Assembly: GCA_031280965.1 (NCBI GenBank)
Contig: JAITFZ010000015.1
Span: forward strand, 78,323-142,322
Source of the DNA: Oscillospiraceae bacterium
GTDB lineage: Bacteria; Bacillota; Clostridia; Oscillospirales; Ruminococcaceae
Direction of reading: 5' to 3'
Length of the DNA: 64,000 nt
Of the stretch, positions 18,301-20,421 are shown piece after piece. Positions within the stretch are counted from its first letter, which is position 1; the number at the start of each line of letters is the position of its first letter. The notes under the pieces are model-generated. The model was given only the letters and a program-made list of their open reading frames with translations, did not search any database and was not told where the DNA came from. The translations under genes and the position numbers were made by a program.

Positions 18301-19758
18301 ATGAAGAAAGCAGCTATATACATTCGTGTTTCAACGCAGGAGCAGGCAGAGCGCGGCTTTTCAATAGGTGAACAGAAAGAGCGGCTTTTAGCCTATTGTA
18401 AGGCTATGGACTGGCTTGTGCATGAGGTTTACATTGATGCCGGTTATACCGGCTCTAACTTAGACCGCCCGGCAATTCAGAAACTGAAATCCGATATAAA
18501 TAAATTCAATGTCATTTTAGTTTATAAACTTGACAGGCTTTCGCGCAGGCAGTTTGATATACTTGATTTAATAGAAAACACTTTTTTCCCCAATCGTGTT
18601 GATTTTGCTTCGATGTCCGAGGCTTTTGACACATCCACTACTTACGGCAAATTTATGGTTGGTTTGTTAGGCTCTTTCGCCCAGCTTGAACGCGACCAGA
18701 TTAAAGAGCGCACGACAATGGGGCGCAAAGCCCGCGCAAAGGGAGGCAAGTGGCATGGCGGAGGCGATGACCCTGTGGGTTATGATTACGTTGACGGCGA
18801 GCTTGTTATAAACGAGTACGAGGCGGAGCAGATTCGATTGATTTTTGAAATGGCGGCTGACAGCAAGTCCAATCAGGAAATTCTTGACGAGTTAATTACA
18901 CGCGGATACACGACGAAGTACGGTTCGTATAATCAAAATCATGTCAGCAAAATATCGCGAATCTTAAAGAAAGAAGTTTATCGCGGCACGGTTAAATACG
19001 GCGATATTATAACACGAAACGCTCATGAGCCGATAATAAGCGAGAAGCTCTTTAATGACGCCAACAACGCACGGGCAATCAGGAAAGAAGCTTACGGCGA
19101 TGTAGGTTACAGGAAAACAACATTGCTTGCGGGTTTTATCCGGTGCGTTAAATGCGGCGCAAGGTTCACCACCACAATAAGCAGGCACAAGAAAAAAGGC
19201 AGTCCGTCAACTTCCGAGAACCGCTACCACGCCTGTTATTCGCGGGCGTTCCCGAACTCAAAAATGGCGAAACAGAAAGGTTGCACTAATAAAATATGGC
19301 GTATGGACGACCTCAATGAAGAAGTCGGCAAAACCGTCAGAAAATTAATTTTTGAAGAAGGGTACTTCGACAAATTATTAGAACCGACGACCGCGAAGTC
19401 AACCCCAAAAGAAAATCCCGTTAAAAAGCGGATTAATGAAATCAATAATCAAATGTCAAAATTAGCGGAGCTATACTCCCTTGATACGATGCCGTTTGAA
19501 ACTCTTTCGGACAAGGTTGATAAGCTGCACAAGGAAAAAGAAGCGTTGACCAAGAAGCTCAAGGACGAGGAAAAGGGATTAAATATATTGCCGGATAAAA
19601 ACATTGACGAGTTCCGTTCGATTCTTAAAGACACGGGCAATCTGTGGGACTTGGCGGACCAAGACCAAAAACGATACCTGTTGTCCCTGCTTGTGAGGGG
19701 GATTTATATAAACGACCATGATTTGGAGTATGACTGGACGTTTTTGCCTAAAAAGTAA
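18301..19758 (+). CDS. large serine recombinase (resolvase + recombinase + Zn-ribbon + coiled coil)
   Basis: YIRVSTQEQ catalytic Ser, [35 protein letters not shown]...YHAC...C Zn ribbon; intact 485 aa. Confidence 0.96.
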
Positions 19759-19796
19759 CAATCTTAACGAAGCACGGACTGAGGTATGCTTGTGAC

Positions 19797-19843
19797 ATAT
19801 ATGAGTGTATCTTATATTATTCACATCCTTAACACCCATATCT
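19797..19843. mobile_element. candidate attL/attR junction at the spoVAD breakpoint
   Basis: spoVAD homology ends at AAT AAT AT| (19821-19814). Imperfect dyad ATATGAGTGT (19799-19808) / ACACCCATAT (19832-19841) centred on the break, starting 41 bp after the recombinase stop. Confidence 0.65.
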
Positions 19844-20421
19844 GTTACCTTCCCGAATGTCACCGCTTTTATATAAGGCGGGTTTTTCCTCGGCGCCACA
19901 ACCACACACCCTGCCGCCGTCGCCGTCCACTGTGCTGTCGGTGTACGCTGTCCGCCGTAATTCAAGGGGAAGCGGAACTGCCGCTCCGCAGAACAAAAGT
20001 GCGACGAAGTCATTGCTGCCGCGTTCTGTGCTACGCCCGCCTCAACAAAAACCGAAGCTAAAGCGAGGCTTTCAGCCATAGTCGAACATGCGCCGAAAAG
20101 CCCGATAAAAGGTATATCGAAATCTCTGCCTCCGTATGATGAGCAGGTACATTGATTAAGCAAATCTCCCGCAAAAATAAAACTAATGTCGGTTTCTGCG
20201 AGCCGCCCTTTTTCGAGAGCGGTGCGAAATGCGTTCTTTTGCAAAACCACCTCCGCTTTTTCCCAGCTGCCGTCTTCGCCGAGGGCGGCTTCTTCGCCGA
20301 TATAGTCAAAATAATCTGCTAAAGGGCCCTTACCTTCTTTCGGACCGACCGCTGATGCATACGAAAGCACGGACGGCGCGTTGTCAAGGTTGATTGTGCC
20401 TTTTCCGTAATAATTTCCCAT
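19814..20421 (-). pseudogene. spoVAD: 5' half (codons 1-202) of stage V sporulation protein AD, interrupted
   Basis: SpoVAD motifs VGPKEGKGPL, SWEKAE, AGDLLNQ, GLFGACST, SSHFCSAERQFRFP and QWTATAAG. Homology stops after DMGVKDVNN, where MGAAMAPAA is expected. Confidence 0.9.

Follow-up and report, generated by a model that had tools for sequence, protein, structure and literature searches.

The 64,000-nt window analysed here (positions 78,323 to 142,322 of contig JAITFZ010000015.1 in assembly GCA_031280965.1 of an Oscillospiraceae bacterium; below, contig C27 of genome G000) contains a truncated copy of the sporulation gene spoVAD facing an intact gene for a large serine recombinase (LSR). 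The features of this locus are listed in Table 1. The truncated spoVAD open reading frame (ORF; 20421..19579, minus strand) follows spoVAC, the first gene of the operon, and its product matches the Pfam family SpoVAD over profile positions 1-197 of 329 (E 4.1e-78), which confirms the end of similarity at codon 202 given in the initial annotation. The protein reads ...GKVTDMGVKDVNN and then continues with 78 unrelated residues; no Pfam family matches it beyond residue 203. The LSR gene is transcribed toward the break, as had been noted, with its stop codon at a distance of 58 nt from the crossover point defined below. The remaining gene of the operon, spoVAE, had been reported as missing; it is absent from the window but present on contig C36, together with the other half of spoVAD.

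Table 1. Features of the spoVAD junction and the adjoining recombination module (positions within the window)
Feature	Position	Strand	Basis or remark
Match to a forespore-type (sigmaG/sigmaF-like) promoter pattern, GAATA-N17-CAAAATA	17996..18024	+	22 nt upstream of the 50-aa ORF
50-aa ORF, candidate recombination directionality factor	18047..18199	+	conserved position
Terminator-like hairpin between the 50-aa ORF and the LSR	18215..18249	+	inverted repeat I4, 12-nt arms 92% complementary, then T run
Predicted sigma-70-type promoter TTGACT-17-TACAAT with upstream TG, directly 5' of the LSR	18253..18281	+	sequence match
Large serine recombinase, 485 aa, intact	18301..19758	+	Pfam, PHROG and structure matches
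Non-native read-through tail of the truncated spoVAD ORF; element DNA antisense to the LSR 3' end	19579..19816	-	
attL element half-site (P' arm)	19785..19816	.	inverted repeat of the P arm on C36
Crossover dinucleotide, first two bases of codon 202	19817..19818	TT on +, AA in spoVAD sense	common to attL and attR, on the attP dyad axis
attL spoVAD half-site (B arm)	19819..19850	.	native spoVAD sequence, carries ACACCCATAT
spoVAD 5' part, codons 1-201 and two bases of codon 202	19817..20421	-	Pfam SpoVAD
spoVAC, first gene of the operon, intact	20433..20882	-	Pfam SpoVAC_SpoVAEB, 1.2e-40

The recombinase carries the catalytic-serine motif YIRVSTQEQ and consists of the Pfam domains Resolvase (PF00239, residues 4-151, 4.7e-36), Recombinase (PF07508, 5.8e-13) and Zn_ribbon_recom (PF13408, 4.3e-07). 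It matches the PHROG integrase family phrog_95 (1.5e-123), and the nearest solved structures are the catalytic domain of TP901-1 integrase (E 3e-35) and the C-terminal domains of A118 integrase (E 1e-16); the latter match spans residues 137-479 and takes in the recombinase, zinc-ribbon and coiled-coil domains.

The assembly (2.01 Mb in 36 contigs, 98.8% complete) was searched with the SpoVAD family and contains exactly two SpoVAD pieces, the one in the window and one on C36 (11804-12205, minus strand), which covers profile positions 195-328 (codons 203-337) and is followed by spoVAE. The initial annotation had predicted a partner site in which an element arm would be joined to ATG GGN GCN and the following conserved codons, and such a site was found on C36 at about 12191-12240. 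In the sense of spoVAD it reads CCCTTGTTGCCATATATATTTGTATCTTATC-AA-CATGGGAGGCGCAATGG (attR), and the junction in the window reads GGTGTTAAGGATGTGAAT-AA-TATAAGATACACTCATATATGTCACAAG (attL). Joining the gene flanks in silico yields a 337-aa SpoVAD with the seam ...KDVNN/MGGAMAGAA..., which aligns to ten intact homologues with no gap at this point and is 63-68% identical to homologues of the same genus. The in silico rebuilding of the parental sites that had been proposed was also carried out, and gives AAGGATGTGAAT-AA-CATGGGAGGCGC for attB and TTGTATCTTATC-AA-TATAAGATACAC for attP. The assembly holds only one attL and one attR, and neither the attB form, the attP form nor further copies of the arms occur in it. 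The partner junction supports the earlier view of the break as an attL-type junction with the usual integrase–att geometry, and the identity of this junction and of its partner is highly probable.

A chimeric join in the assembly, with spoVAD in reality intact, might be suspected since many of the 36 contigs end near repeated mobile elements. However, each of the two junctions is a unique sequence on a contig of its own, the two match base for base, and their element arms are complementary. The same type of junction is found in independent assemblies beside related LSRs, and the recombinase has no close paralogue in the genome (best 34% identity). An assembly artefact is thus extremely improbable.

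Two short stretches are common to attL and attR, the dinucleotide AA and an AT three bases further on. The arms of the rebuilt attP form inverted repeats in which 20 of 30 positions are symmetric about AA, and none of 100,000 shuffles was as good; in the AT register the symmetry falls to 10 of 30, and the axis lies on AA whatever base is placed between AA and AT. In a pseudo-palindromic attP, serine integrases cleave at the two central bases, through which the dyad axis passes (PMC3783163). Because the attP axis falls on AA, and these enzymes cut the dinucleotide on the axis, the crossover is taken to be AA, the first two bases of spoVAD codon 202. The self-complementary AT proposed in the initial annotation, for which its presence in both junctions could be cited, is not borne out, and was rejected as the crossover on attP symmetry. 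Since AA is not self-complementary, the sites would be polar, and the same site could not recombine in both orientations. Of the claim that the site permits recombination in either orientation, including inversion, the random choice of orientation is therefore unsupported, while the sites could still recombine by inversion if a later chromosomal inversion has placed them in inverted orientation.

The agreement with spoVAD, said to run through AAT AAT AT, is certain up to AAT AA, while the next T and the AT belong to the element arm. The 9/10 inverted repeat noted at the break is real: its arms are ATATGAGTGT at 19799-19808 and ACACCCATAT at 19832-19841, with the centre at 19820, 2.5 nt from the crossover, and a dyad equally good and equally well centred arises in 0.6% of shuffles. 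The motif ACAC(C/T)CATAT (19799-19841) occurs both in the spoVAD B arm and in the element arms, but its distance from the crossover is 5 bp greater in the former, an offset equal in size to the zinc-ribbon shift between attP and attB of A118 but of the opposite sense. As reconstructed, the sites have the features of LSR sites: they are short, the axis of the pseudo-palindromic attP carries a crossover of 2 nt, and the target is not duplicated beyond it. In these respects they resemble the sites of the TP901-1 and A118 (Listeria) integrases (PMC3783163), which differ in being phage-borne and in having other targets.

Relatives of the LSR were drawn from a protein collection, and the following statements cover those whose surroundings were read. 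Five relatives at 57-71% identity sit directly beside a truncated spoVAD. The 71% relative (L045) is on a contig too short for neighbouring element genes, while the 68% relative (L035, L036) is accompanied by a relaxase and HEPN/NTase pairs, the 65% relative (L037) by thioredoxin, ferredoxin-type and glycosidase genes, the 58% relative (L038, L039) by VirD4/TraG, TrbL, VirB4-like, ArdC and ParE/Phd genes, and the 57% relative (L056) by phage sheath, DnaB and YoeB genes. On account of these five, the clade with 57-71% identity is regarded as dedicated to a single site in spoVAD, where its members are borne by a prophage, a conjugative element and a mobilisable element. Relatives at 46-55% are phage integrases located away from spoVAD, and no close homologue (more than 50% identical) of the LSR was found in the 400 other sampled genomes of the order. 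Two further observations concern this group. A 53% LSR on a metagenome contig (L057:6001-8236) lies beside a 130-aa fragment of a Peptidase_S11 protein (D-alanyl-D-alanine carboxypeptidase), which may be another split gene, and the prophage with the 57% relative encodes a 138-aa protein with the Spo0A C-terminal domain (L056:3392-3808).

The LSR gene abuts the 3' half of spoVAD on the same strand in L035, L037 and L045, and converges on the 5' half in G000, L039 and L056. These two arrangements might be ascribed to an AT crossover through which the same pair of sites recombines either way, giving random excision or inversion. However, taken on the strand of the LSR gene, the core is AA in the first three loci and TT in the other three, which accounts for the two insertion orientations. 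Together with the position of the attP axis, this leaves the AT crossover very unlikely.

Several observations weigh against integration of an LSR element at codon 202 as the origin of the junctions. The exact attP 24-mer was not found in viral or metagenome contig collections, nor the exact attB 26-mer in the metagenome contig collection; attL and attR lie on unlinked contigs (C27 and C36); and one relative at 68% identity (L046, on a 6-kb contig) does not adjoin spoVAD. Even so, the structural reading, an LSR junction with its partner in a dedicated target, is secure.

Interruption of spoVAD is not confined to this genome. In a survey of 401 genomes of the order that are at least 90% complete, spoVAD is present in 377 and absent from 24, including the same-genus genome G013 (98% completeness). 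Weak two-piece SpoVAD matches were obtained in 15 genomes, 13 of which are cut at profile positions 200-212; with G000 and G036, at least 15 of the 401 genomes carry a split spoVAD. When a single contig carries both halves, these have direct orientation and enclose discrete intervals of 80 kb (G036), 15.8 kb (G251) and 38.4 kb (G278). Most of the other splits are at a site about 24 nt downstream (MAPA/A), with different arms and an LSR about 25% identical to that of G000, so that one conserved stretch of about 25 nt has become the target of two LSR lineages that are unrelated to each other, a case of convergence. None of the genomes with a split spoVAD has a second, intact copy. In G318, two 5' halves (C43:531-1148 and C16:42735-43355) occur with a single 3' half (C26:30152-30532).

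Unlike these discrete intervals, the DNA on the element side of attL is core chromosome. The gene aspS ends 77 nt before the small ORF, and polA, a division-type penicillin-binding protein gene, murE, mraY and murG follow further along the same contig. The spoVAD 5' half belongs to a 12.4-kb block, past the other side of which C27 runs into valS, rqcH, nif3 and trmK. With aspS, polA and the mur genes on one side and valS on the other, essential genes lie on both arcs between the sites and no discrete dispensable element separates them. A simple insertion with dispensable cargo was rejected because of these essential genes, and a prophage at the window locus because there are no phage genes on either side.

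The present order of genes points to rearrangement. In the closed same-genus genome G017, aspS-trmK-nif3-rqcH-valS are colinear on one strand, whereas in G000 the block trmK-nif3-rqcH-valS is inverted relative to aspS and lies 19.6 kb beyond it. The GC skew is negative only at about 100-124 kb of C27, and positive on both sides. In L045 and L037, which are close relatives (SpoVAD C-terminal parts 86% and 84% identical to that of G000), spoVAE lies beside yicC or near mgl-M42-M42, genes that in G000 are situated past the break in cotJC described below. From the G017 gene order, the GC skew and the spoVAE neighbours it is concluded that a segment of about 25 kb (window ~17980-43500, C27 ~96.3-121.8 kb) has been inverted, and that one of its ends falls within the 77 nt that separate aspS from the small ORF. 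Both the GC skew and the orientation of genes in this segment are opposite to those of the two flanks. No repeats above chance were found at its two ends. It would hold attL but not attR, and the two sites may now be in inverted orientation. At least one further rearrangement is needed, and on comparison with G017, L037 and L045 the contigs allow no unique order.

Contig-end overlaps tried for linking C27 to C36 gave only an overlap between C28 and C36. The end of C28 and C36:14677-14749 lie inside the same (CCCGACGTT)n coding tandem repeat and overlap by 73 nt, and probably C28(+) joins C36(-), so that the P-arm side of attR would continue into C28. The thioesterase and epimerase genes of C36 have no consistent neighbourhood in five genomes of the same genus. 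A sequence common to the region before the C36 epimerase gene and to two LSR genes was considered as an att site and rejected, as it is a dispersed repeat of about 95 nt. This intergenic repeat (e.g. C36:13002-13097, L031) occurs in dozens of copies about 90% identical and ends in TTGGTGAAGAAAGGACTTTATGAAAAC just before the start codons of unrelated genes, which explains why several ORF calls extended to TTG or GTG start with VKKGLYEN.

Upstream of the LSR lies a 50-aa ORF that belongs to no Pfam family. It weakly matches phrog_15521, of unknown function (E 0.005; the ORF of L037, E 0.026), and a word-based homology search returned only the ORF itself. A related small ORF is situated directly upstream of the LSR in L035 (54 aa), L037 (48 aa) and L045 (partial), and these products have in common the motif I-I/L-IP-x2-GNE-x-IY-x-G-F/L-I/L-K-I/V/L-AKEI ... 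SA-stop. The conserved synteny lends support to the 50-aa ORF as a candidate directionality factor. The terminator-like hairpin that follows it has a comparable counterpart at the same position in L045. The sigma-70-type promoter before the LSR is the best promoter-like site in 17900-21100 (10/12 matches), and TTGACT-17-TAAAAT stands at the equivalent position in L045.

What is left in G000 is the recombination module alone: the two sites, the LSR and the sigma-70-type promoter belonging to it, the 50-aa ORF and the terminator. Mobility genes have been lost, and no relaxase, coupling-protein or type IV secretion genes adjoin this LSR. The LSR, the small ORF and both halves of spoVAD read through with no stop codon or frameshift.

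The strict pattern GHATR-N17/18-CAHWHTA used to detect the forespore-type promoter match is the sigmaG-type consensus from work on B. subtilis. It has 49 matches in 4.02 Mb of strands, and is matched in 0.34% of shuffles of the 76-nt region upstream of the 50-aa ORF. The promoters of the genome's own small acid-soluble spore protein (SASP) and spoVAC genes do not fit this strict form of the B. subtilis consensus, and a further match (GTATA-N17-CAAAATA) precedes, by 15 nt, the LSR that truncates spoIVA, a mother-cell gene. The match before the 50-aa ORF as a possible promoter can therefore serve only as a lead.

This arrangement brings up a programmed rejoining of the skin type in the forespore, in which a constitutive LSR and a 50-aa factor controlled by a sporulation sigma factor would restore spoVAD before sigmaG-dependent expression. 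The module has remained intact in every part despite the loss of the mobility genes. The separate LSR promoter and the terminator after the small ORF, as in L045, resemble the layout in SPbeta, where a constitutive integrase is paired with a regulated factor (PMC6957869), and the sigmaG/F-type match 22 nt before the small ORF has a P of about 0.003. The mother-cell genes cotJC and spoIVA are also interrupted beside LSRs in G000, spo0A and a SASP gene are present, and at least 15 of the 401 genomes have spoVAD split at this hot spot, both halves being open and no second copy being present. On the other side, the misfit of the SASP and spoVAC promoters and the second copy of the pattern at spoIVA speak against the promoter match. 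The small ORF overlaps the LSR start codon with its stop codon in L035, and abuts it in L037, which does not point to separate control. Neither spoIVA nor cotJC has its C-terminal piece in the assembly, and the sporulation set may be decaying. Moreover, the intervening elements described so far almost all act in the mother cell (PMC4191935, PMC6957869). As essential genes lie between the sites, only two routes would be open to such a programme: an inversion, or an excision that is transient and is undone at germination by the LSR acting alone. Programmed rejoining in the forespore is thus a tentative possibility, and a doubtful one.

The state of the other sporulation genes bears on a further explanation. 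In the window, cotJC is cut at ~32236 (32139-32300), its N-terminal part ending ...TQYGG and the crossover being placed within GCGG (QYGG/ADGEL). The next piece of cotJC (C5:3000-3460, L032) lies directly after an LSR gene (C5:1508-3106), and the element arms match as inverted repeats; this piece in turn ends with ...KGDP against a second, converging LSR (C5:3434-4843). The gene spoIVA (C18:4153-5496) stops matching after ...APSIH at a converging LSR (C18:2535-4241). The last third of cotJC and the SpoIVA C-terminal domain (PF20439) were found nowhere in the 36 contigs. The 2.0-Mb genome contains 21 LSR genes, three of them in tandem at C28:22952-27805 and several within a few kb of contig ends. 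Between spoVAC and cotJA, window positions 30210-31355 encode a 381-aa protein with a weak match to the collagen repeat, below the Pfam gathering score, which may be of exosporium type.

It is conceivable that sporulation is being lost, and that spoVAD, cotJC and spoIVA are pseudogenes whose open frames reflect recency, the LSR serving other elements or nothing. The absence of the spoIVA and cotJC ends from the contigs, the 24 surveyed genomes devoid of spoVAD, with one of the same genus, and the heavy traffic of mobile elements indicated by the 21 LSR genes would be consistent with such a decaying relic. However, the spoVAD halves, the LSR and the small ORF have remained free of stop codons and frameshifts, and spo0A, a SASP gene, spoVAC, spoVAE, cotJA and cotJB are intact. 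The missing pieces may also lie outside the 36 contigs, several of which end near LSR genes. Decay of this kind is therefore unlikely, and somewhat less probable than the programmed rejoining discussed above.

The best explanation for window positions 19785-19850 is that they represent the attL formed when an LSR element integrated into spoVAD at codon 202, of which only the recombination module remains; taken as a whole, this statement is favoured with moderate confidence. An integrative element would have inserted in spoVAD, and later inversions and loss of cargo would have left the junctions far apart. Serine integrases recombine attP with attB unaided, while recombination of attL with attR takes place only with a directionality factor. 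The LSR alone would then make and keep the split attL/attR state, and the LSR together with a directionality factor, for which the 50-aa ORF is the candidate, would rejoin spoVAD exactly.

As assembled, which is the majority state, spoVAD is non-functional. The consequence thought most probable, with about even chances, is a tolerated knock-out, with spores not loaded with dipicolinate; rejoining timed to sporulation is appreciably less probable, and an occasional untimed reversal, or something else, less probable still. The spoVAC-AD-AE operon is sigmaG-dependent, i.e. expressed in the forespore, in C. difficile, and a spoVA mutant of C. perfringens still forms spores, with reduced viability (PMC3789822). 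By analogy with the model species, spoVAD would be a forespore gene in G000 too. A knock-out is favoured because excision in the germ line would lose DNA that is essential here, because spoVA is a sigmaG forespore operon in C. difficile, and because the C. perfringens mutant makes spores and some relatives lack spoVAD. Against a plain knock-out, the LSR, the small ORF, the sites and both gene halves are all intact despite the loss of mobility genes and the rearrangement, a pattern such as selection for keeping the module would produce. Timed rejoining, in turn, is opposed by the predicted forespore expression of spoVAD and the essential genes on both arcs.

These objections would be lessened in a bistable switch operating in the germ line, in which the LSR alone splits spoVAD, the forespore-made 50-aa factor with the LSR flips or transiently excises the segment, and germination re-splits the gene. 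An ancestral excisable island would have become impossible to lose through the ~25-kb inversion, which would have turned attL and attR into inverted orientation. With inverted sites, the LSR and the factor would flip the DNA instead of deleting it, which would remove the germ-line objection. Such a switch is nevertheless improbable, more so than the decay of sporulation considered above.

The described intervening elements interrupt sigK, spsM, spoVFB, spoVR, gerE, kamA and yabG, almost all of them mother-cell genes (PMC4191935, PMC5595907, PMC6957869, PMC10747680). A full-text literature search found no published report of spoVAD as a target of a recombinase or mobile element. The locus in G000 has in common with intervening elements such as skin, SPbeta, gin, vfbin, vrin and yin the interrupted frame of a sporulation gene, a recombinase at the edge, and junctions that rejoin in silico to an intact gene. 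It lacks a discrete dispensable element and a mother-cell-specific gene, the compartment being deduced from model species.

The skin element with SpoIVCA in sigK (in B. subtilis, and in C. difficile with a directionality factor) is likewise DNA that splits a sporulation gene, with an LSR at its edge and precise rejoining that restores the frame; the cargo varies from one such element to another, and conservation is limited to the recombinase and the sites (bioRxiv 10.1101/2022.02.25.481979; PMC5025042). It differs in that it is a discrete, dispensable element in the mother-cell gene sigK, and the rearranged genome is discarded; here the interrupted gene belongs, in the model species, to the sigmaG regulon (PMC3789822), and murE-mraY-murG and polA lie beyond the element arm. 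SPbeta, with SprA and SprB acting in spsM, and phi3T in kamA also employ a serine integrase with a small separate factor setting the direction, for which there is a candidate here, and the layout is comparable. In SPbeta, a sporulation-specific promoter drives the factor and not the integrase (PMC4191935, PMC6957869). Unlike the G000 module, SPbeta is an active prophage in a mother-cell gene, while no phage genes are present here and the 50-aa ORF has no detectable similarity to SprB. The gin element in gerE of Bacillus cereus ATCC 10987 (GirC and GirX) is a non-phage element whose rejoining also needs a serine recombinase (PMC5595907). However, it is a discrete element of 28.6 kb in a mother-cell regulator gene, with sporulation-specific excision shown experimentally.

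Other elements offer more distant parallels. Among the LSR-moved elements of clostridia are Tn4451 (TnpX) and Tn5397 (TndX). In Clostridia, relatives of the G000 recombinase are similarly situated at the end of elements that encode a relaxase or type IV secretion, while the G000 LSR has no transfer genes beside it and its clade has a single dedicated target in a conserved gene. In the cyanobacterial heterocyst elements of nifD, fdxN and hupL, recombinase-bounded DNA also interrupts genes of a differentiated cell (cited in PMC6957869); they differ in that the rearranged genome is terminal, as with skin, and no germ-line problem arises.

The spoVAD gene would be needed in the forespore, which is the germ line, while the described elements reside almost entirely in mother-cell genes, where the rearranged genome is discarded. 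Since essential genes lie between the sites, excision with loss would be no option in G000, and the question is posed more sharply here than by the discrete islands found elsewhere. The locus represents a fully specified test system, comprising a single LSR, a single candidate factor of 50 aa and four sites (attL, attR, attB and attP) known to the base, by which plain breakage of a forespore gene could be told from a reversible rearrangement of the germ line. The two LSR lineages supply new, naturally orthogonal pairs of integrase and site, and splits in spoVAD matter wherever the capacity for sporulation is inferred from the genomes of gut Clostridia.

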